In this document: positions 1,403 to 40,416 of the stretch, one piece after another
How positions within the stretch are numbered: the first letter of the stretch is position 1
How the letters are laid out: the number at the start of each line of letters is the position of its first letter
Origin: Bacteroidaceae bacterium
GTDB lineage: Bacteria > Bacteroidota > Bacteroidia > Bacteroidales > Bacteroidaceae
Assembly (NCBI GenBank): GCA_017429525.1
Contig: JAFROT010000030.1
Span: forward strand, 113,776-177,775
Direction: 5' to 3'
DNA length: 64,000 bases
Notes under the pieces: model-generated
Told to the model about the DNA's origin: nothing
The model's input: only the letters and a program-made list of their open reading frames with translations
The model's database searches: none
Program-made: the position numbers and the translations under genes

Positions 1403-3934
1403 ATGAAAAAGTATTTTACTCATCTCATGGCGCTTCTCGCATGCTTCGTAGTGAGCATGAGCGCTAATGCGCAGTTCAGCGCAACGATTGAGGACTACCC
1501 GACTAGCGATTGGAGCTGGAAAGGTCATGACTTCAGTCTCGCAGAGGTAGCATCAACGTTAGGAACCGACGCTGCCACGCTCGTAGCGGCCCTCGATGCT
1601 TGGATGGCAGAAGAAGCTCCCACGGAGTTTCTCTTCCAAACATCCGACTACGTGCCCACGGCGTTAGAGAACTATGCAGCAGCCGACCGAGGTTTCTGGA
1701 TGTCGCTTGACGGCGTGCCTCACGCTTGGGACGAAACAGATGCAGAAGGCAACCAATTGGTCAGCATCTACAACCATTTCGCATGGGATGCTGCAGCTGG
1801 CACATTCACCGTAGGTATCGGTCAGCGCGCAGGTGCCCTTGCTGCCGGAGCTGAAGGTCACGCATCTCTGGTGCTGGCTTACAACGGTAAAAAAGCAACC
1901 TTCGACATCACGTTCAAGGTCATCGAGAAGGAAGCGCCCGACCTCCCTGAGGCTGAGACCGATCTGACTAAGCTGACCATCGTCGGCGAGAAGACCGTCG
2001 AGTTGGATCAGTATCCCAACGTTGCTACGCAACAGAAAATCGACCTCACAGGCGTTGCCGAAGCTCTCGGCACGACGGACGAGATTATCGCTGAGAACCT
2101 CGGCGAGTTTCTCTTCACCACCACCATCGAGCTCCGCGGTGAGGACGAGGACAGCCAGAAGCCTTACAAGACCAACACGCTCAGCAAAGAGCCTTCTGCT
2201 GGTGGCATCGGCTGGTGGCTGGCTGCCGTCTGGGACGACGAGAACGATGCCTGGTCCGAGGAAACCGCCCGCTGCGTATGGGGCGAGCATGCCGCTTTCC
2301 GAAGCATGTACAGCGAGCAATACAGCTTCGACGCTGCCACCCACACCCTCAGCTGCGTAACAGGCTGGGAAAACTATTCACTCGAACTGGGCACGAAGTA
2401 CAACTTCCACGTCTACGTCGTCTACGGCAACAAGGCCTATCATATTAATAACGTAGTTACCTTGTCACAGAAGCCCGAGGAAGATCCCAGCAAGTGGGAG
2501 AAGATCGGCGAGCAGGATGAGGCCGTAAGCATGTTCCAAGGCGACAACCTCACCACGCTGAGCCTCGACGTTGACGCTATCGCTACAGCCCTTGGCTGTG
2601 AAGTATCGAATCTCAAGATGTATGGCCCGTCAGATGAAAAGGGCAATATCGATGACCGCCAGACGGCTAACAATGGCGGTATATGGTTCAGTGGAAATGG
2701 TTTTGTCTGCGCTTGGAATAGCAATGACGACAAGGGTAGCCCCTTCACCTTCTACATTGAGCCTGTAAGCGACAAGGACTTCAGTAATATGAATGTCGGT
2801 CAGAATGCCGGTGCCACCGAAGCTGGAGTTACTTATACAACAACTCTCTTCTTCTTCAACGGCGACAAGAGCGACGAAAACAACAAGTATTACGCCGTCA
2901 ACGTCAGCATCGCCATTGAAAAAGAAGACCAAGGCGAAATCGTTGATCCCAGAGAGTGGGAAAGTGTTGCCACAAAGAACCTCAGCTACAATGTAGAGGT
3001 AGCCACCTCGGGCTGGGGCGGCGAGATTGGAGAAGGCGTCGACCTCGATGAGATCGAGACGCTTATTGGCACGCGCACTCCCAAACTTTACGGATGGGTG
3101 AAGACCGATGCAGGCACCGAATACTCCAAAGATTGGAGCTGCGATCCGAAACCAGGTTTCTGGTTGACTGGCGACGGTTACGTGACCACTTGGACCGACA
3201 ACACCGCCTCTCCCTTCGGCGTCTGCTACCTCGCCGACGGCACATTCCAACTCTTCCAATGGGTGGGCGGTAATCCCGAAGGAACCGTCCGCAAAACCAC
3301 CTTCTTCCTCGTCAACGAACAGAACGGCAAGTTTGTCACCATCAATATGACCATTATCTTCGGTCAGACCATTCAGGTCGACGAGATTGGCGAGACTTCC
3401 GTTGAGATGGGCATCGGCACAAGCAATACCTACTACGACGTTGACTTCACCGAGGCTGTCAAGGGCTTTGAGGTCGAGAAGATCGAAGACGTCATCGGCT
3501 CACGCTGCATGCGCGCCCTCAACGACGATGGCACTTGGACCGAGCAGATGGTTCCCGGCGACGGTGTGCCCTTGAATGAGAACGGCGCCCTCGACGTCTC
3601 CGACGACAACATCCTCGCCATGGCATGGATCTACGCCGAACCTAAGGACGACAACACCGTGACCTTCGAAGTCGAGCCCGGCAACATCAAGATTGCCAAG
3701 GGCAGCAAGGTAACCACCAAGCTGGCCTTCGAGTACGAGCCCGAGGGCGAAGAGACGATTGCCAAGCGCTTCGTGGTCAACATCACCCTCATGGATGCCG
3801 ACGACCTCACTGGCGTTCAGAGCATCAAGGCTGAGGTGAACAGCGTTGAGGTCTACGACCTCGCCGGCCGTCGCGTCAGCAATGCTGCCACCAAGGGCAT
3901 CTACATCGTAGGTGGTCGCAAGGTTGTCCGCTAA
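1403..3934 (+). CDS. T9SS-secreted repeat protein (signal peptide, five ~170-aa modules, C-terminal sorting domain)
   Basis: N-terminal signal MKKYFTHLMALLACFVVSMSANAQ. The C-terminus VEVYDLAGRRVSNAATKGIYIVGGRKVVR matches the type IX secretion CTD pattern. Repeated module anchor L..A..LG (AEVASTLGTD, VAEALGTTD, IATALGCE, IETLIGTR). Confidence 0.75.
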   Translation: MKKYFTHLMALLACFVVSMSANAQFSATIEDYPTSDWSWKGHDFSLAEVASTLGTDAATLVAALDAWMAEEAPTEFLFQTSDYVPTALENYAAADRGFWMSLDGVPHAWDETDAEGNQLVSIYNHFAWDAAAGTFTVGIGQRAGALAAGAEGHASLVLAYNGKKATFDITFKVIEKEAPDLPEAETDLTKLTIVGEKTVELDQYPNVATQQKIDLTGVAEALGTTDEIIAENLGEFLFTTTIELRGEDEDSQKPYKTNTLSKEPSAGGIGWWLAAVWDDENDAWSEETARCVWGEHAAFRSMYSEQYSFDAATHTLSCVTGWENYSLELGTKYNFHVYVVYGNKAYHINNVVTLSQKPEEDPSKWEKIGEQDEAVSMFQGDNLTTLSLDVDAIATALGCEVSNLKMYGPSDEKGNIDDRQTANNGGIWFSGNGFVCAWNSNDDKGSPFTFYIEPVSDKDFSNMNVGQNAGATEAGVTYTTTLFFFNGDKSDENNKYYAVNVSIAIEKEDQGEIVDPREWESVATKNLSYNVEVATSGWGGEIGEGVDLDEIETLIGTRTPKLYGWVKTDAGTEYSKDWSCDPKPGFWLTGDGYVTTWTDNTASPFGVCYLADGTFQLFQWVGGNPEGTVRKTTFFLVNEQNGKFVTINMTIIFGQTIQVDEIGETSVEMGIGTSNTYYDVDFTEAVKGFEVEKIEDVIGSRCMRALNDDGTWTEQMVPGDGVPLNENGALDVSDDNILAMAWIYAEPKDDNTVTFEVEPGNIKIAKGSKVTTKLAFEYEPEGEETIAKRFVVNITLMDADDLTGVQSIKAEVNSVEVYDLAGRRVSNAATKGIYIVGGRKVVR

Positions 3935-14932: not shown

Positions 14933-15014
14933 TAACGAATGATAGAGTGCCGCTGGCACGACGGAATGAGTGAGACTATTCCTTCGTGCTAACGGCACTC
15001 TTTATCTCCAGTAT

Positions 15015-15067
15015 AGATTGACGACGATTGCCATCCAGATTGGCGACGATTGCCATCCAGATTGACG
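15015..15067. repeat. 22-bp tandem repeat, 2.4 copies
   Basis: agattgacgacgattgccatcc / agattggcgacgattgccatcc / agattgacg. Preceded by a 58-nt extended hairpin at 14944-15001 (agagtgccg...cggcactct). Confidence 0.8.
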
Positions 15068-15210: not shown

Positions 15211-15218
15211 TAACTTTG
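15211..15218 (+). promoter_or_regulatory. -7 box (TAacTTTG) for the LRR surface protein gene
   Basis: taactttg, 73 nt upstream of the ATG at 15291. Confidence 0.5.
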
Positions 15219-15290
15219 CAGCGGAACTGATACCCTTTCGAGGGCTTTCAGGTGAAAAATCGTATAAATAAACATCAAAACATACCCATT

Positions 15291-18200
15291 ATGAAGACCA
15301 AATGCTTTACTTTCCTACTCGCTCTCCTCTTCACCGCTATGGGGGGAGTCAACGCTGCAGGGACATATACCGTTAGGGTCACTGATGGCTACACCCTCAG
15401 TACGTCAGACTTACAAGCAATCACGGTGCTTGTTACTCAGAACGTCATCTCCCTTACGACTTCGGGCAACCTTAGAATCGTCAAGAACTCCAGTGGCACT
15501 ACGCTATTCAATATTGATTGGGATACGCGGACATGCTATCTGTCTTCCAGCACCTCCAGTGCCAACAACATGTTGAGTTCAATCACTTTAAGCTCAACCC
15601 AGTTGATAAACATAAACGCCCCCTCCATGGTGAACTACACCTCTATCGCCATGACGTTTCCCGACCCAGAGGCTTACGCCGCGCGCCTTAACAACAAGTT
15701 GACGTTCTACTACGACCATCAGAGGTCCGTCCATACCACTACCTACTCGTTGAACACCGGCAGCAACAACCCAGGCTGGTACAGCATAAGCGGGAGCATC
15801 ACTTCGGTGGAGTTCAATCAGACATTTGCCAACGCCCGCCCCACCAGCTGCTACCGTTGGTTCGCTGAAATGACGAGCATCACTAACATCACAGGACTGA
15901 ACTACCTCAACACCAGCAACGTCACCAACATGAGTTACATGTTCGACGGCAGCACTGGCTTCAACAGCCTCGATGTGAGCGCCCTCAACACCGCCAACGT
16001 CACCAACATGGAAGCAATGTTCAGGAACTGCACAGGCCTCTCTGGCCTCTATGTGAGCTCTCTCAACACTGCCAAGGTCACCAACATGAAGGAAATGTTC
16101 AAGAACTGTAGTGGCATTGTTAACCTCGACTTGAGCAGCCTCAATGTTGCCAATGTCACGACGACAACTGGCATACTCCAAGGCTGCAGTGAGCTGAAAA
16201 GCCTGAACCTTAGCGCCGCGTTGTTAAACAAGATCGAGGATGGCGGTTGCTCGGGCATCGGCACCACCACCAGCCCCTGTGCACTCTACTATCCCACAAC
16301 CTCGCACCCGACGTTCAGCGAGGCCACTAACGTCTACGTCAAATGGAAGGGCGGCTACTTCAACAGCGCGAACAGGAGGACCTACGCCTACATGAGCGGC
16401 ACTACCCTCATCTTCTGCTACGACGATTACTACGATTCAAGGAAGGCCTCTTCGACCGTCTACGACCTGAATTACGGTAGCAACAACCCAAGTTGGTACA
16501 GCAACCGCACGAACATCAGTTCGGTGTCGTTCAGTTCCTCGTTTGCCAATGCCCGCCCCCTCACCTGCTACATGTGGTTCTCTGGAATGAGCAACCTGAC
16601 CAGCATCTCGGGGCTGACCAACCTCAACACCAGCAGCGTCACCAACATGTATGGCATGTTTTCCCTTTGCCAACAGCTCACGAGCCTCAACGTGAGCTCG
16701 TTCAACACCAGCAACGTCACCAACATGGAATCCATGTTCGCAGGACTGAGCCAAGTCAAGAGCCTCAACGTGAGCTCGTTCAACACCGCGAAGGTCACCA
16801 ACATGCAAAATATGTTCAAGAACTGCAGCCAAGTTACCAGCCTCAACCTAAGCAACTTCACGATAACCAGCTCGACGAACACCTCAGGCATGCTCAACAA
16901 CATGCTCGGCTTGCAGACACTGACCCTCTCCACCTCCTTGGTGAACTATCTGAACAGCACGGCCTGCACACATATCGGCACTGACATTTACGGCACCCTC
17001 ACCACGCCCTGCACGCTCATCTATCCCGCCAATCTACACCTGACATTCACGGAGGTGGGGCCAAACTACGTGAAGTGGAAGGATGGCTACTTCACCGACC
17101 CCAACATGAAACCCTACGCCTGCCTCAGTGGCAACACCCTCACGTTCTACTACGATGACAATTACACATCGAGACAGGCTACCTCGACGGTCTACGACTT
17201 GACCACCAGCGACAGACCTGGTTGGTACAACAGCCGTCAAAACATCACGTCGGTCGTGTTCAACTCATCGTTTGCCAATGCCCGCCCCACCACCTGCGAG
17301 AGTTGGTTCGAAGGTATGAACAACCTCACCACCATCACGGGGTTGAGCAACCTCAATACGAGCAATGTCACCAACATGGCTGGGATGTTCAACGGTTGCT
17401 CGCGCCTCACCAGCCTCAACCTGAACCTGAGTACCTTCAACACATCCAACGTCACCGATATGGCATCGATGTTCTACGGCTGCTCGAGCCTCACCAGCCT
17501 CAATGTGAGCAACTTCAATACGGCCAAAGTCACCGATATGTACCGCATGTTCTACGGATGCTCGAGTCTCACCACTCTCAATGCGAACAACTTCAATACG
17601 ACCAAGGTCACCGACTTTCAAGAGATGTTCTACGGCTGCTCGGGGCTGAAGAGCCTCGACGTGAGCAGCTTCGTTACCAATGTAGACGCCGATTGGGTGA
17701 GAGGCTTCGTGAGTGGCTGCACGGCGTTGGAGAGCCTGAGCCTTAGTGCATCGCTGACGAGCCGAATCGAGGTCAATGGCTGCACCGACATCGGCACCGC
17801 CACAGCACCCTGCACACTCATTTATCCCACCTCCGTGTGCCTGTCTTACAGCGATGCTACTCCCACCTATTTCAGATGGAAGGGAGGCTACTTCACCAGC
17901 CCCAATGTGAAGCCCTACGCCTGTCTGCGCGGGAACATCCTCACCTTCCACTACGACGACCAATACGTGACAAGTCAAGCCTCCTCGACGGTCTACGACT
18001 TGAACACTGGATTAGACGACCCAACCTGGATTAGCAGCGCTGAGAGTATCACAGAAGTGGAGTTCGCCGCTTCGTTCCGCAATGCCCGCCCCACCAGTTG
18101 CCGAGCATGGTTCGCTATGATGAGCAACCTCACCTCTATTACGGGACTGAACTACCTCAACACCAGCGAAGTCACCAATATGGCATACATGTTTATGAAC

Positions 18201-19616
18201 TGCAGCCACTTCGACGACTTGGATTTGAGCCAACTCAATACCTCCAAAGTCACTACCATGGAAGGTATGTTTTTCGGTTGTACCCCACTCATCAATCTGA
18301 ACATCAGCTCATTCAATACCGAGAATGTCACCAATATGTCGTACATGTTCTACACCTGCCGCGGGCTGGAGGACCTTGACTTGAGTAACTTCAATGCTGA
18401 ACATGTCACCAACACGGAAAGAATGTTCTTTTACTGCTCTGGGCTGGAGAGCCTCAGCTTGAGTGCAGCGCTCGCGACCAATATGAATAATAATGCCTGC
18501 GAAGGCGTAGGCACGGCCGAGTCGCCTTGCGTGCTCAACTATCCTTCTGATGTGGAACTGACATTCACGGAGGTGACGCCAAACTACGTGAAGTGGAAGA
18601 TTGGTTACTTCCTCCCCAACGCGAGTTTGGTGAAAGCCTATGCCGTGTTCTATGGCAATACGCTTACCTTCTACTATGATGACGCATCCTCTTCAAAGAG
18701 CGGCACAGTCTACAAGTTGAACACGGCCGAAAACGACCCGGCCTGGATTCCTAACGCTGAGAGTATCACAGAAGTGGTGTTCGACGCTTCGTTCAGCGAT
18801 GCCCGCCCCACCAGTTGCTACGCATGGTTCGCTAGGATGAAAAACCTCACCTCTATTACGGGACTAAACTACCTCAACACCAGCGAAGTCACCACCATGG
18901 CAAACATGTTTATGAACTGCAGTGGCTTCACCAACTTGGATTTGAGCCAACTCAACACGACCAACGTCACCAATATGTCGCAAATGTTCTACCGCTGTAC
19001 GAACCTTACCAACCTCGATGTGAGCCACTTCAACACCGCTAATGTCGAGAGCATGTATGCGATGTTCTTCCAATGCCTCAGCCTTACCAGCCTCGACGTG
19101 AGCAATTTCAACACAGCCAACGTCCGTTCTATGTCTGCCATGTTCAACTCCTGTAGTAGCCTTACAAGCCTCAATGTAAGCAACTTCCAAACCGACAACA
19201 TCACGGATACTATGGACACGGAAGGGATGTTCTACAACTGCTCTGGGATGAAGAGCTTAAGTTTAAGTGCCGCGCTCATAGACGTCATACATCCAGATGC
19301 CTGCTCAAGCGTGGGCACGACGGAGTCGCCCTGCGTGCTCATCTATCCCGAAGGCTGCTCGATTGAAAAAGATGAGATAGGAGACGGTTGGTTCCGCTGG
19401 AGTAACGGATACTTCACCGAGGCGCCCGCTTACCTAATGGGTGATGTGAACAGCGACGACAAGGTGACCATTGCCGACGTGACGGCACTCGTCAACATCA
19501 TCCTCGGCAAAGACTCCGCCGGACTCTACAACCGCGACGCAGCCGACGTGAACGGCGACCATCAAGTCACGATTGCCGATGTGACGGCGCTGGTAAACTT
19601 GATTCTCGGGAAATAA
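15291..19616 (+). CDS. BspA-type leucine-rich repeat surface protein with C-terminal dockerin-like pair
   Basis: Signal peptide MKTKCFTFLLALLFTAMGGVNA. Five ~240-270-aa modules, each with TLTFYYDD...SFANARPTSC..WF followed by NTSNVTNMxxMFxxCSxLxSL repeats. C-terminus GDVNSDDKVTIADVTALVNIILGK...ADVNGDHQVTIADVTALVNLILGK. The listed ORF starts at a GTG at 15252. Confidence 0.85.
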   Translation: MKTKCFTFLLALLFTAMGGVNAAGTYTVRVTDGYTLSTSDLQAITVLVTQNVISLTTSGNLRIVKNSSGTTLFNIDWDTRTCYLSSSTSSANNMLSSITLSSTQLININAPSMVNYTSIAMTFPDPEAYAARLNNKLTFYYDHQRSVHTTTYSLNTGSNNPGWYSISGSITSVEFNQTFANARPTSCYRWFAEMTSITNITGLNYLNTSNVTNMSYMFDGSTGFNSLDVSALNTANVTNMEAMFRNCTGLSGLYVSSLNTAKVTNMKEMFKNCSGIVNLDLSSLNVANVTTTTGILQGCSELKSLNLSAALLNKIEDGGCSGIGTTTSPCALYYPTTSHPTFSEATNVYVKWKGGYFNSANRRTYAYMSGTTLIFCYDDYYDSRKASSTVYDLNYGSNNPSWYSNRTNISSVSFSSSFANARPLTCYMWFSGMSNLTSISGLTNLNTSSVTNMYGMFSLCQQLTSLNVSSFNTSNVTNMESMFAGLSQVKSLNVSSFNTAKVTNMQNMFKNCSQVTSLNLSNFTITSSTNTSGMLNNMLGLQTLTLSTSLVNYLNSTACTHIGTDIYGTLTTPCTLIYPANLHLTFTEVGPNYVKWKDGYFTDPNMKPYACLSGNTLTFYYDDNYTSRQATSTVYDLTTSDRPGWYNSRQNITSVVFNSSFANARPTTCESWFEGMNNLTTITGLSNLNTSNVTNMAGMFNGCSRLTSLNLNLSTFNTSNVTDMASMFYGCSSLTSLNVSNFNTAKVTDMYRMFYGCSSLTTLNANNFNTTKVTDFQEMFYGCSGLKSLDVSSFVTNVDADWVRGFVSGCTALESLSLSASLTSRIEVNGCTDIGTATAPCTLIYPTSVCLSYSDATPTYFRWKGGYFTSPNVKPYACLRGNILTFHYDDQYVTSQASSTVYDLNTGLDDPTWISSAESITEVEFAASFRNARPTSCRAWFAMMSNLTSITGLNYLNTSEVTNMAYMFMNCSHFDDLDLSQLNTSKVTTMEGMFFGCTPLINLNISSFNTENVTNMSYMFYTCRGLEDLDLSNFNAEHVTNTERMFFYCSGLESLSLSAALATNMNNNACEGVGTAESPCVLNYPSDVELTFTEVTPNYVKWKIGYFLPNASLVKAYAVFYGNTLTFYYDDASSSKSGTVYKLNTAENDPAWIPNAESITEVVFDASFSDARPTSCYAWFARMKNLTSITGLNYLNTSEVTTMANMFMNCSGFTNLDLSQLNTTNVTNMSQMFYRCTNLTNLDVSHFNTANVESMYAMFFQCLSLTSLDVSNFNTANVRSMSAMFNSCSSLTSLNVSNFQTDNITDTMDTEGMFYNCSGMKSLSLSAALIDVIHPDACSSVGTTESPCVLIYPEGCSIEKDEIGDGWFRWSNGYFTEAPAYLMGDVNSDDKVTIADVTALVNIILGKDSAGLYNRDAADVNGDHQVTIADVTALVNLILGK

Positions 19617-20111: not shown

Positions 20112-20209
20112 CATATATACGCTCAGGGTCACACGTATATACGCTCAAGCTTACACGTATATACGTGAGAGGCTTTGCGTATATACGCGCGAGGCGATGC
20201 GAATATACG
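20112..20209. repeat. 22-bp tandem array, 5 units with palindromic core cgtatatacg
   Basis: Cores at 20112, 20134, 20156, 20178 and 20200, an exact 22-bp period. Confidence 0.85.
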
Positions 20210-20387
20210 TGCGGCACTTAGCGACGATTTCTTGACTTCCTTAGGGATTGGCCCTTCGCTGCTGAAGTTCCGGTCCTTCAAAGCCCACGTCTTTTCCTCT
20301 GACCCGTTCCGATAGTTGAAGCGAACAAGTTCGCGCGGTTTTAACCATCTTTAAGGGCGATTCTTTGTTCGATGCAGCAAAGAAGTG

Positions 20388-37503: not shown

Positions 37504-40416
37504 TCATTTGTTATACAGCAGTTGTCCGTCAGCCTCTTGGCCTTCAGCCTCAACGAGGATGCTGGTTTGCTGGCTGTTGTTGTAGAAGGTGACGTTCGCT
37601 CGGCCATCGTCGTCGAGTTGCAGGTCGGGATTCCAGTAGAGCGTGCGACGGTAGTCCTTCTGACCCTCCACTGGCGGGTTGCGCTGATAGTCGGGATGGT
37701 AAAAGTCTTCCTGATAAGCGAATCCTGGCAGGATGTAGCGGCGGTCACGATAAGTTACCCGGCGTGCCCAGTCAGGGTAGCGGTGAAGCGACACCTCCAC
37801 GCTGGGCTGGTTGCCCTGTTCGTAACGCTCATCACCCTCGCGACGAGGCGAGTAATCGGAGTAGACATACACTTTATCCAGATATTCCAGACGTTGGTAG
37901 CGTCTCTTGTCGCCACGCGGCATGAACGGTGGCGTAAATCTACTCATTGCGTCCTCATCCTTGCTCACGAAACGCATAGGCAACGAGTCGAAGTAGAGCT
38001 TGAAGTCGTAGAAACGGTTCATACCCATATCACCGATATAGAGGCTGGCAGTCTGCGTGCCGAGGTCGTCGGAATTGGAATAGTGCGTCATCAGCCCGGC
38101 ATCCATAATTTCATTGAACACGGCATAAGCATCTTTCACATAGGCGGGCTTGGAGAGGTCTATGCGCCGCTTACCTCCATGACTGGCACGTACGATGACT
38201 TGTTCCAGTAGATGATCCCCATCTGTCGTGAGCGCTGATGGGAGGACATCTTCACGTAATGAGGCATTATGTACTTGATAGTAAGTGTAAGGTTTGACAA
38301 AACGGGGATAAGGGAAGTTCAGACGGACATAGTATTCGGGAAATGTCTTCAGCCGATCGTTTTCGTCTGCCTCCATCTCCACCCAGTTGAACGTCTTGTT
38401 TTTGCTCCACTTTGCCGTGTCGCTGGCTGCGAGGAAGAAGACGCACTCGCCCTCAAAGCGAGGCAGTTCCATACGGAAGGCACCACCGCGTGTCTCCACA
38501 TCGCCCACGATGCCATTCTTAGGATCATCGGGATGGAAGAACTCAGCATGTACGCGCACCTCACGTCTCAGATTGCCCCGCTCGATGAAGCGACGTTCAC
38601 TCTCCCTGACGCGCTCCCTCTGCTCGGATGACTCATGCGTCAGCGCATTGTACGACCGATTGTCAATCGCCTGATTTCCGAAACCGTCATTGTCTACACG
38701 GCTCCGCTCCACAACGCTACTGGAGGGACGTAACCCAAACGTTCGTTCGCCATCATATTGCTTTTCAGTTCCAATGCCATCGAGCAGCAGATAGTGGGAC
38801 TCCAGTGCTGCAGCATAGTCCTCATCCTCCTCAGCATACGTATTGTAGCGGTTGACGGTACCCGTCACCATCTGTGTCTGCTCTGCGGGATGTGTCAGTT
38901 CGAAGGCACCACTGACAGCCATGTCCTGCCAGTTGAAACGGCGCCAACCCTGCGTCAGCATCAGCAGGTCGAGCCCACGACGATGCTCCTCGTCGTCCTT
39001 CTCGAAGAACCACTCCGCCTGTGGCACGAAGCCCTTGATTTCCGATGCCAGCAACATCTCTGTCATGATATTGCCGCTATCGAATGTCACATCCGTGTGG
39101 GCGGCATCGCGGACGGCGAGAGAGAAGTAAGACGCTGAATGAGAAGCATTGGCTGAGGATGTCTTCGTTTTCGCTATCGTCAACGCTACTTTTTCGAATG
39201 GCTTGTATTGATCCTTTACGCCGTTGATGGCCAACGTTGGCGTCATCATATCCGTGGACGTGACGAAGAAAAGACGGTCGGCATACACCCGGCCGTCTGC
39301 ATCGAAGACCGTCAGTTGGTGGACACCAGGGGAAGTAGTGGGAAGTTGAAAGACAAAAGAGTTAGACGATTGAGTGTCAGCATTGCCTAATGTCTCGAAA
39401 TGCTCGAGGACACCTTCACGCATCACCGTCACCCCCAGTTGTTTCTCCTGCGTCTTGCCGCAGACATAGATCTCAGCCTGCCACTCACCGCTGTGCTGAT
39501 GCAACTGCAGTGCTACGCCTTCGGCCACAACAGTTTTGATTTCCTGACGAACTTGCGCGCCGTCGTTGCTCGCAGTGAACACCACTTCGTAGTTCTGTCC
39601 CGCTTCAGGTGTGAACGTGAATGTACCTCGCCCACGGTTTTCGCTCGTCACGAAATCCACGGTCTCACCTTGATTGTTTTCTATTTTCTGATTCTCATTT
39701 TTCACCCTGATTGCTAGTGAGCCTTCGCGAACCTCACCCTCGTTCGTTGCCACCTCGAAAGCGACGCGGCACGGCACACCTGCTACGAGGTTACCACCCT
39801 CGGGGAATAACGACAACCGCAGCTGGGGCTGCGAAGGGGCATCCTTGAAGTAACGGCGTAGCGGGCGAAGTGTCATATCTTTGTAGAAATCACCCGCTTC
39901 CTTAGGTTTGTCATAAACAGGGAACACGCGCGAGTAAAGCTTGTCGTAGTCACGGTAATAGTCCTTTGCCATGCCTTTGTTGTAAAAGCTCAGTTCTCGT
40001 GTCCAGCGATGCGCATGCTCCGTCTGGCCCCAGTTCAGCTGCCAGCGTGTGTACGCACGCAATTCGAAATACCCACTATAGAGCGAATCGGGTAAGGCGA
40101 AGAAGCCATGCCCTCGACCGTCTTGCATCTCGATCAGCTTACGCTCAACGAGGTAGCCATCGTGGTTCCATAGTTCGGCATACAACACACGCGAGATCTT
40201 GCTTGGGCGGTCGCCATTCGTCCGCCGCGTGTAGGCAGCAAACCAGATGGTGTCGCCGAGATAGTAGCTTGTATTATCCATGTGTACATAAACCTTCTCT
40301 TGCGGAATGCGCTCCCCAAAGAGGCGCAACCGCTGCGTGAGGCTGTCCATGCAGCTCTCTGCGGAGGCCGCGAATGTGCTGAGTAGAGTCAGCATACTGA
40401 CGAAAATAGTCTTCAT
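37504..40416 (-). CDS. large secreted protein with MG2/alpha-2-macroglobulin-like N-terminal region
   Basis: Signal MKTIFVSMLTLLSTFAASA. QEKVYVHMDNTSYYLGDTIWFAAYT...VLYAELWNHDGYLV...GYFELRAYTRW pattern. Host-like GC. Family call made from memory only. Confidence 0.55.
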   Translation of the reverse strand: MKTIFVSMLTLLSTFAASAESCMDSLTQRLRLFGERIPQEKVYVHMDNTSYYLGDTIWFAAYTRRTNGDRPSKISRVLYAELWNHDGYLVERKLIEMQDGRGHGFFALPDSLYSGYFELRAYTRWQLNWGQTEHAHRWTRELSFYNKGMAKDYYRDYDKLYSRVFPVYDKPKEAGDFYKDMTLRPLRRYFKDAPSQPQLRLSLFPEGGNLVAGVPCRVAFEVATNEGEVREGSLAIRVKNENQKIENNQGETVDFVTSENRGRGTFTFTPEAGQNYEVVFTASNDGAQVRQEIKTVVAEGVALQLHQHSGEWQAEIYVCGKTQEKQLGVTVMREGVLEHFETLGNADTQSSNSFVFQLPTTSPGVHQLTVFDADGRVYADRLFFVTSTDMMTPTLAINGVKDQYKPFEKVALTIAKTKTSSANASHSASYFSLAVRDAAHTDVTFDSGNIMTEMLLASEIKGFVPQAEWFFEKDDEEHRRGLDLLMLTQGWRRFNWQDMAVSGAFELTHPAEQTQMVTGTVNRYNTYAEEDEDYAAALESHYLLLDGIGTEKQYDGERTFGLRPSSSVVERSRVDNDGFGNQAIDNRSYNALTHESSEQRERVRESERRFIERGNLRREVRVHAEFFHPDDPKNGIVGDVETRGGAFRMELPRFEGECVFFLAASDTAKWSKNKTFNWVEMEADENDRLKTFPEYYVRLNFPYPRFVKPYTYYQVHNASLREDVLPSALTTDGDHLLEQVIVRASHGGKRRIDLSKPAYVKDAYAVFNEIMDAGLMTHYSNSDDLGTQTASLYIGDMGMNRFYDFKLYFDSLPMRFVSKDEDAMSRFTPPFMPRGDKRRYQRLEYLDKVYVYSDYSPRREGDERYEQGNQPSVEVSLHRYPDWARRVTYRDRRYILPGFAYQEDFYHPDYQRNPPVEGQKDYRRTLYWNPDLQLDDDGRANVTFYNNSQQTSILVEAEGQEADGQLLYNK

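Follow-up and report, generated by a model that had tools for sequence, protein, structure and literature searches.

A dockerin-tagged, five-module repeat protein of a Bacteroidales genome and its probable display through cohesin adaptors with type IX secretion-like tails

The repeat protein and its modules

We analysed a 64,000-nt stretch of DNA (the window) from contig JAFROT010000030.1 of assembly GCA_017429525.1, a 3.3-Mb metagenome-assembled genome (MAG) in 56 contigs that is 86% complete. Our subject is a gene at 15291-19616 on the + strand, which encodes a secreted protein built from five leucine-rich repeat (LRR) modules and ending in a dockerin, together with the cohesin-bearing adaptor proteins, encoded on another contig of the same genome, into which that dockerin probably fits. 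The features of the gene are as follows.

15291-19616, + strand: coding sequence of the dockerin-tagged repeat protein, 1441 aa plus stop
15291-15356, + strand: Sec (type I) signal peptide, aa 1-22, with a basic N-terminus, a hydrophobic core and ..VNA/AG at a cleavage site placed by eye
15357-15668, + strand: Ser/Thr-rich N-terminal region, aa 23-126, without a family match
15669-16361, + strand: module 1, aa 127-357, a DUF285/PARCEL LRR module (profile matches, cap motifs)
16377-17093, + strand: module 2, aa 363-601 (cap motifs, module alignment)
17109-17894, + strand: module 3, aa 607-868, with one repeat more than modules 1, 2 and 4 (cap motifs, module alignment)
17910-18611, + strand: module 4, aa 874-1107 (cap motifs, module alignment)
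18633-19415, + strand: module 5, aa 1115-1375, a modelled LRR solenoid and the site of size variants (AlphaFold2 (AF2) model, PDB matches, variants)
19440-19607, + strand: type-I-like dockerin, aa 1384-1439, two near-identical F-hand halves (D-V-N-x-D-x-x-V-T-I-A-D-V-T-A-L-V-N)

The longest frame of the gene opens at a GTG at 15252. We took the ATG at 15291 as the start because it gives a classical signal peptide and because the same methionine is common to all close orthologues. The signal peptide has no lipobox cysteine, and the region that follows it (aa 23-126) matches nothing in Pfam at E<=1.

Every module has two caps, LTFYYD at its N-terminal end and SPC..YP...W.GGYF at its C-terminal end, and between them the 26-aa repeat in 4-6 copies. 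The repeat keeps a strict period of 78 nt, with 21 copies counted in the DNA and 22 stretches recognised by the hidden Markov model (HMM). A preliminary description of this DNA, made from the letters alone, had proposed five modules and a short tandem repeat, and both proposals stand: module starts at nt 15669, 16377, 17109, 17910 and 18633 go with LTFYYD and GGYF caps, and the 26-aa (78-nt) repeat occurs about 4-6 times per module. The same description had called the protein a BspA-type LRR protein. This is right insofar as it is a secreted, multi-module LRR-type repeat protein, but the family is DUF285/PARCEL: PF03382 (DUF285) scores 371.8 bits against a cut-off of 25, TIGR02167 (the PARCEL repeat) reaches 526 bits over the 22 stretches, and the BspA-type model LRR_5 (PF13306) has no match to the protein at E<=1. 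Nor could the suggestion that the modules are near-identical in DNA be upheld, as they share 45-60% of their residues and 56-69% of their nucleotides, with longest exact common words of only 14-28 nt.

An AF2 model of module 5 with the dockerin, built with 41 related C-termini, has a predicted local distance difference test score (pLDDT) of 88 overall and 96-98 in the solenoid. Its best neighbours in the PDB are LRR proteins, headed by 4fs7 from Bacteroides ovatus, which is also the best match to the repeat protein in a search of PDB sequences (E 1.1e-5); one relative carries the NCBI name 'BspA family leucine-rich repeat surface protein'. The protein adds a new member to a very large family that is as yet uncharacterised, and its DUF285/PARCEL modules probably bind ligands.

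A dockerin at the C-terminus

The last 56 aa match PF00404 (Dockerin_1) with 34.9 bits when the whole protein is scanned and 41.1 bits when the tail is isolated (cut-off 22.9). The two halves, DVNSDDKVTIAD and DVNGDHQVTIAD, are each followed by VTALVN.ILGK, and each presents a D-x-N-x-D...D calcium loop of 12 residues (D1, N3, D5, D12) and then a helix; in the numbering of the modelled fragment (module 5 and the tail) the two helices span residues 287-297 and 321-331. Superposed with Foldseek on solved type I dockerins, the last 59 residues of the model give template-modelling (TM) scores of 0.71-0.83 and root-mean-square deviations of 1.6-1.9 A (6kge_D, TM 0.83, 1.7 A; 3ul4_B, TM 0.80; 2mte, TM 0.71 with 41% identity). 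We also scored the last 150 aa with profiles of the canonical C-terminal domains (CTDs) of the type IX secretion system (T9SS) in this genome and of its short, putative CTDs, and neither exceeded 2 bits. The reading of the C-terminus as a dockerin-like pair that takes the place of a T9SS sorting domain was therefore correct on both counts: the Pfam match lies above cut-off and the model has the dockerin fold, and no CTD profile scores on the tail.

The repeat protein is one of many that carry this tag. PF00404 has 26 matches above cut-off in the genome, roughly 20 of which end 2-4 residues from the C-terminus of a protein with a signal-peptide-like N-terminus. About 23 otherwise unrelated secreted proteins have the dockerin and no CTD. 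The passengers include a PL11 rhamnogalacturonan lyase, M60 and M6 peptidases, endonuclease I, a Cthe_2159-type protein, DUF6055, Big_2 and beta-helix proteins, and several DUF285 or LRR_5 repeat proteins; one dockerin protein other than the present one combines LRR_5 with DUF285. No cellulase was found among the cargoes identified (LRR proteins, peptidases, nuclease, PL11, GH31). Both halves of almost all of the dockerins share the motif DVNxDxxVTIADVTALVNIILGK, so we treat them as a single specificity class. Metagenome assemblies reflect the sharing in the DNA as well: contigs of three metagenomes break off exactly at the dockerin segment (19425-19605), where their depth goes up 3- to 8-fold, which shows that this segment is repeated among many genes.

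Cohesins of the genome

Neither Pfam nor our own cohesin profile found a cohesin in the window or elsewhere on its contig, all matches lying on contigs C10, C16, C32 and C51. The earlier remark that no cohesin-like gene is visible nearby thus holds for the window and for the entire contig, and the genome search proposed with it yielded candidate partners on other contigs. In the genome scan PF00963 was above cut-off in two open reading frames (ORFs), with 31.9 and 25.2 bits; scanned as proteins, the same two gave 27.7 bits, and 19.7 bits, which is below the cut-off of 24.1. A jackhmmer search that started from the Pfam-detected cohesin and covered all six-frame ORFs returned five cohesin ORFs, most of them missed by Pfam. 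The cohesin proteins, given by contig and coordinates, are these.

C32:48355-52140: GH31 protein with fn3, a discoidin domain, a divergent dockerin and then a cohesin in one chain (Pfam)
C10:36731-40327: two-cohesin protein with four MBG repeats, a cohesin, a divergent dockerin, a second cohesin and DUF6359 (Pfam)
C16:292-1677: LRR_5, a cohesin and a divergent dockerin (missed by Pfam, found by the iterated search)
C51:15741-16292: signal peptide, a cohesin and half a dockerin (missed by Pfam, found by the iterated search)
C16:1725-2927 and C16:14641-15924: two paralogous adaptors, with signal peptide, cohesin, an X domain of ~180 aa and a short tail (missed by Pfam, found by the iterated search)

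The first two differ in kind from the adaptors. The GH31-dockerin-cohesin protein belongs to a separate conserved family of ~1290 aa that is kept across the Bacteroidaceae, including relatives that lack the T9SS translocon SprA, and appears to form a cohesin-dockerin pair apart, possibly one that associates with itself. The two-cohesin protein is split in two frames (C10:36731-41117, overlapping at 40254-40327), the upstream frame supplying a signal peptide and LRR_5; the gene is evidently frameshifted in the assembly, which may be real or an assembly error. By eye the end of C10:36731-40327 resembles a CTD, and we discarded a T9SS tail there as CTD profiles gave it no support (E 1.6 with one, no match with the other). 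We likewise attribute to chance a Pfam cohesin score of 19.8 bits on SprA/Sov (2476 aa), since it falls inside the normal conserved region of SprA. With our own profile, no ORF of the whole genome has more than two cohesins, and neither a multi-cohesin scaffoldin nor a carbohydrate-binding module (CBM) was seen. A cellulosome, taken as a multi-cohesin scaffoldin with a CBM and dockerin-tagged cellulases or hemicellulases, was therefore not found in this genome.

Adaptor proteins and their short tail

The 427-aa adaptor (C16:14641-15924) has at least 797 homologues in the protein collection. Among the 120 best listed, the few that are named are hypothetical proteins, and only one has a precomputed Pfam cohesin match; PF00963 itself matches 5 of 45 adaptor homologues. 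An AF2 model built with those 45 homologues has a pLDDT of 84.9, and its N-terminal domain superposes on solved cohesins (5nrm_A, 2jh2_C, 4ums, 2xdh) with TM 0.72-0.76 and a probability of 1.0. Against PDB sequences the adaptor profile has a sole match, to the C-terminus of the rumen arabinanase 4kca (E 0.002). Surveys that depend on the Pfam cohesin model find few partners, or none, for dockerins such as these, and the candidate partners described here are too diverged for that standard model.

The X domain (aa ~186-365) is beta-rich and modelled with a pLDDT of ~90-96; it has an invariant W..T..P motif and no Pfam match. X domain and tail together also end many large proteins (1000-2900 aa) in related genomes.

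The adaptor tail can be taken, with moderate confidence, for a shortened type A CTD of the T9SS, to judge from profile comparisons. Aligned with a profile of the 12 clear type A CTDs of the genome, the tail profile reaches 91.7% probability in hhalign (E 8e-7); the two conserved motifs align, with ~13 residues missing between them. The curated models see it below cut-off (TIGR04183, E 0.003-0.008; PF18962, E 0.0066 in the genome scan and 0.021 with the protein). The short tail (..vYdL.Gr.v....kGvYIv.GkKv.v) is present on ~52 ORFs of the genome and in every case forms their extreme C-terminus; C26:36862-41019 is an example outside the window. Two ORFs are matched by both the short and the canonical tail profile, and no dockerin-ending ORF has either. 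Since TIGR04183 and PF18962 miss the short tail, standard annotation would undercount the T9SS cargo of this lineage about four-fold.

The window itself illustrates this. The preliminary description held that other secreted proteins in it use T9SS sorting domains; TIGR04183 and PF18962 have no match anywhere in the window, and the claim survives for one ORF, recognised by the lineage-specific profile and the only detectable T9SS-type cargo there:

1403-3934, + strand: 843-aa secreted protein with three DUF4859 domains and a short T9SS-CTD-like tail (lineage-specific tail profile, E 1.5e-8)

Gene order, fusions and distribution

Three lines of evidence join the dockerin class to the adaptor cohesins, the first of which is gene order. 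On contig C16 one adaptor gene (C16:14641-15924) begins 260 nt after a dockerin-tagged LRR gene (C16:9465-14381), and the other (C16:1725-2927) begins 48 nt after the cohesin-dockerin gene (C16:292-1677). SprA/Sov is encoded on the same contig (C16:28916-36772), with both adaptor genes and two dockerin genes 13-35 kb away. We also compared gene order in 121 sampled genomes of the family. At least 15 gene pairs, from at least 12 genomes and several genera, have a dockerin match on the same strand as a cohesin start and 57-730 nt upstream of it.

Fusions are the second. Scoring the 120 nearest homologues of the repeat protein with our own tail profiles, we found 42 that end in a dockerin, 40 that end in a short CTD alone and 27 in which the dockerin is followed by a tail of ~172 aa. 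The tail of these 27 aligns to the adaptor cohesin (hhalign 97.1%, E 7.5e-11) and then to the CTD (97.5%, E 6.5e-12). One passenger family thus uses its own sorting tail, a dockerin, or both in one chain.

The distribution across the sampled genomes is suggestive in the same sense. SprA is present in all 15 that have five or more dockerins, and genomes without SprA have 0-1 dockerin; among the 25 with two or more dockerins, 22 have matches to the adaptor family. Pfam cohesin counts over the 121 genomes do not follow the dockerin counts, and we abandoned them as a test of partnership: the Pfam model is too insensitive, and family-specific searches were therefore used instead.

Variation in module number

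The cluster of proteins at 90% identity contains full-length members that are 95-96% identical over their common parts and fall into four lengths.

1441 aa: four members, the present protein included; no difference
1467 aa: two members; one additional 26-aa repeat in module 5
1173 aa: one member, present on four contigs (up to 166 kb); lacks 268 aa
1757 aa: one member; 316 aa more, which include a sixth module of 312 aa with 70% identity to module 5

Close relatives, then, have 4, 5, 5-plus-one-repeat or 6 modules, and module number is not invariant; the size variation by whole units that had been predicted for this gene is found across them. Both the 268-aa deletion and the 316-aa insertion have their junctions in the module-end motif, and the last cap, beside the dockerin, is the same in all length variants. 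A likely junction of the deletion is formed by two direct-repeat arms:

18493-18544, + strand: the module 4 copy of the conserved module-end segment (GT.ESPC.L.YP), forming one arm of a 52-nt direct repeat
19297-19348, + strand: conserved module-end segment of module 5, the other arm, 85% identical to 18493-18544

The pattern fits in-frame gain or loss of whole units by recombination at the module-end motif. The variants are known from metagenome assemblies; collapse during assembly is unlikely because the modules are so diverged, and the 5-module form is matched colinearly by contigs from three independent gut metagenomes of sheep and goats. We looked as well for heterogeneity of module number inside one sample and rejected it in view of these colinear contigs; the apparent 'joints' in them probably reflect paralogues, their sides being short (20-75 nt) or their mismatch 9%. 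A changed module number would alter reach, valency or antigenicity, and variation by whole units suggests selection on a surface binding protein in the ruminant gut.

A model for display and its alternatives

What we build on is observed: the domains with their folds, the set of cohesins in the genome, the linkage of the genes and the fused chains. In the model that we favour, the repeat protein would be a secreted, non-enzymatic binding protein, with a Sec signal peptide for export, five LRR solenoid modules and a dockerin as its attachment tag. Its most likely partner would be the cohesin of the small adaptors C16:14641-15924 and C16:1725-2927, which the T9SS would export and fix to the cell surface. 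The dockerin would plug, in a calcium-dependent manner, into this T9SS-anchored socket, and the cargo would need no T9SS tail of its own. We regard such non-covalent display of the LRR protein in a T9SS-anchored cohesin adaptor as probable, with room for doubt.

That doubt has several sources. Three of the 25 genomes with two or more dockerins have no adaptor match (two of the three are incomplete), and the co-occurrence counts overstate the support because kindred genomes are not independent. The AF2 model of the adaptor is weakest in the tail (pLDDT 49-76), and TIGR04183 matches only 3 of 45 members of the adaptor family at E<=0.01, none of them above cut-off. Five cohesin ORFs stand against ~23 dockerin-only cargoes, and the main dockerin class is not assignable to one cohesin. 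With a type I signal peptide only, and no CTD, lipobox or secretin, the cargo has no known route across the outer membrane; type II secretion was considered and dropped, as no secretin was found in the genome, which is 86% complete. Binding between the two partners is itself something that we infer, and so are the location at the surface, what the LRR modules bind and the path of the cargo across the outer membrane.

One possible answer to how cargo that lacks a sorting tail gets out of a diderm cell is that the dockerin would be a trans-acting secretion signal as well as an anchor: the cargo would meet the cohesin adaptor in the periplasm, and the complex would pass through the T9SS translocon together ('piggyback'). 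The T9SS moves folded proteins, and co-transport would explain the exit of ~23 large CTD-less proteins from a diderm cell in which no secretin was found. Homologous passengers that bear their own CTD, a dockerin, or a dockerin, cohesin and CTD in one chain agree with it, as do tandem cargo and adaptor genes and dockerin expansions restricted to genomes with SprA. All of this, however, agrees just as well with docking outside the cell. The size of the cargoes, which reach ~2000 aa, is against it, the adaptors are few per cargo, and we found no description in the literature of a non-covalent partner co-transported through the T9SS. We consider joint export unlikely, at perhaps a fraction of the credence due to docking at the surface; were it true, a two-part, trans-acting sorting signal would make ~23 proteins T9SS-dependent.

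Two other explanations appear to us improbable. The repeat protein might stay in the periplasm or in the lumen of vesicles, where its dockerin would assemble complexes or have no partner, and would then be no surface adhesin. A type I signal peptide without CTD or lipobox agrees with this, and several dockerin cargoes are enzymes able to act in the periplasm (GH31 and PL11, for example); but close homologues of the same passenger have T9SS-type tails, as though it were built for the outside, such LRR arrays are annotated as surface proteins, and the cohesin proteins bear export tails. The dockerin might also be a calcium-stabilised module that binds a glycan, lipopolysaccharide, itself or the cohesin of another rumen species rather than one of its own cell. 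The cohesins that Pfam detects are not distributed like dockerin richness, since a genome from the same genus has 22 dockerins and no Pfam cohesin, and dockerin-only genomes have been noted before, the role of dockerins in rumen Bacteroidetes being called undefined (PMC7480376; PMC9763041). What lowers this to a slim chance is that diverged cohesins are present in those genomes when they are searched with the modules of this one, and that conserved gene tandems and single-chain fusions join the dockerin class to this very cohesin family.

Surroundings of the gene

The repeat-protein gene stands between SecDF upstream and a XerC/D-type tyrosine recombinase downstream, an order also found around a 96%-identical orthologue of the same length on an independent metagenome contig. 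The contig is of Bacteroidales origin, and the genome is of the Prevotella lineage (Bacteroidaceae in GTDB); its arginyl-tRNA synthetase shares 92% identity with the enzyme of 'Prevotellaceae bacterium UBA4372', and the near relatives are all ruminant-gut MAGs. A promoter-like match, read directly from the sequence, precedes the gene:

15212-15219, + strand: TAACTTTG, 72 nt 5' of the start codon

We take TAACTTTG to be a match to the Bacteroidetes -7 promoter consensus, TAnnTTTG. A sigma-70 promoter scan was also made; the sigma-70 model is not informative for this phylum. Short contigs matching the gene occur in one RNA-library run, where DNA carry-over is possible, and we make no claim about its transcription from them.

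Several repeats lie between the genes. A 24-nt hairpin follows SecDF (14944-15001) and precedes a 22-nt direct repeat of two tandem copies, 95% identical (15015-15058, intergenic, 5' of the repeat-protein gene). Just 5' of the recombinase gene, which begins at 20372, five tandem 22-nt units with a palindromic core (CGTATATACG) occupy 20112-20221; the number of units varies, one goat metagenome having an additional unit at 20175, and the array may be bound by a protein. We also looked for signals of an invertible promoter or of phase variation near the recombinase gene, and rejected the idea as no inverted repeat flanks the promoter region. Further along the window, G+C falls to 0.39-0.48 between 30000 and 44000, against ~0.55 elsewhere, with a block of 0.53 at 38-40 kb; this stretch may have been horizontally acquired.

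Relation to known systems

The closest parallel is the type I cohesin-dockerin pair of clostridial cellulosomes (C. thermocellum Doc48S, OlpA-Doc918 and the ScaB cohesins of A. cellulolyticus). These have the same duplicated F-hand dockerin of ~60 aa at the extreme C-terminus, the same dockerin fold (TM 0.7-0.83) and cohesin fold (TM 0.72-0.76), and one dockerin class on many cargoes. The host here, in contrast, is a diderm member of the Bacteroidales, the cargo is a non-enzymatic LRR protein, and cellulases are all but missing from the cargo set. Small adaptors provide the sockets, as single or double cohesins, and end in T9SS-like tails instead of S-layer homology (SLH) or sortase anchors; multi-cohesin scaffoldins and CBMs were not seen, and the pairing is predicted from sequence and models.

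The modules have their nearest kin in the PARCEL/DUF285 surface proteins of Mollicutes, Listeria and others (PMC2996958), which have the same 26-aa repeat family in tandem and are secreted or at the surface. The protein described here differs in its five capped modules of 230-260 aa, in not being a lipoprotein and in the dockerin at its end, and the PARCEL paper mentions neither dockerins nor Bacteroidetes (PMC2996958).

BspA-type LRR proteins (LRR_5; 4fs7 is BACOVA_04585 of Bacteroides ovatus) share the LRR solenoid and the gut Bacteroidales as hosts. The resemblance is one of fold and distant sequence only, by way of 4fs7, since LRR_5 does not match the repeat protein. BspA of Tannerella has a T9SS C-terminal domain, and the repeat protein has none. 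T9SS type A cargo (TIGR04183/PF18962) is similar in its large, multi-domain secreted build, its type I signal peptide and its C-terminal tag of ~60 aa, and a third of the nearest homologues of the repeat protein do bear a CTD-like tail. Here, however, the tag is a helical, calcium-binding dockerin and not a beta-sandwich CTD, and any link to the T9SS would be only through a partner.

A 2016 report listed dockerins from rumen Prevotella and Bacteroides (PMC6487960), and in 2020 their role in rumen Bacteroidetes was still given as 'not defined yet' (PMC7480376). Those reports concern the same habitat and lineage and dockerins on non-cellulosomal proteins, but list them without a cohesin partner that bears a T9SS tail (PMC6487960; PMC7480376); in the literature that we searched on dockerins with the T9SS, and on cohesins or scaffoldins in Bacteroidota, we found no description of cohesins on T9SS-tailed proteins. 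Set beside these precedents, the system is a new variant of the cohesin-dockerin principle. It offers a testable model, in which plug-and-socket display of the cellulosome kind would be wired to type IX secretion.

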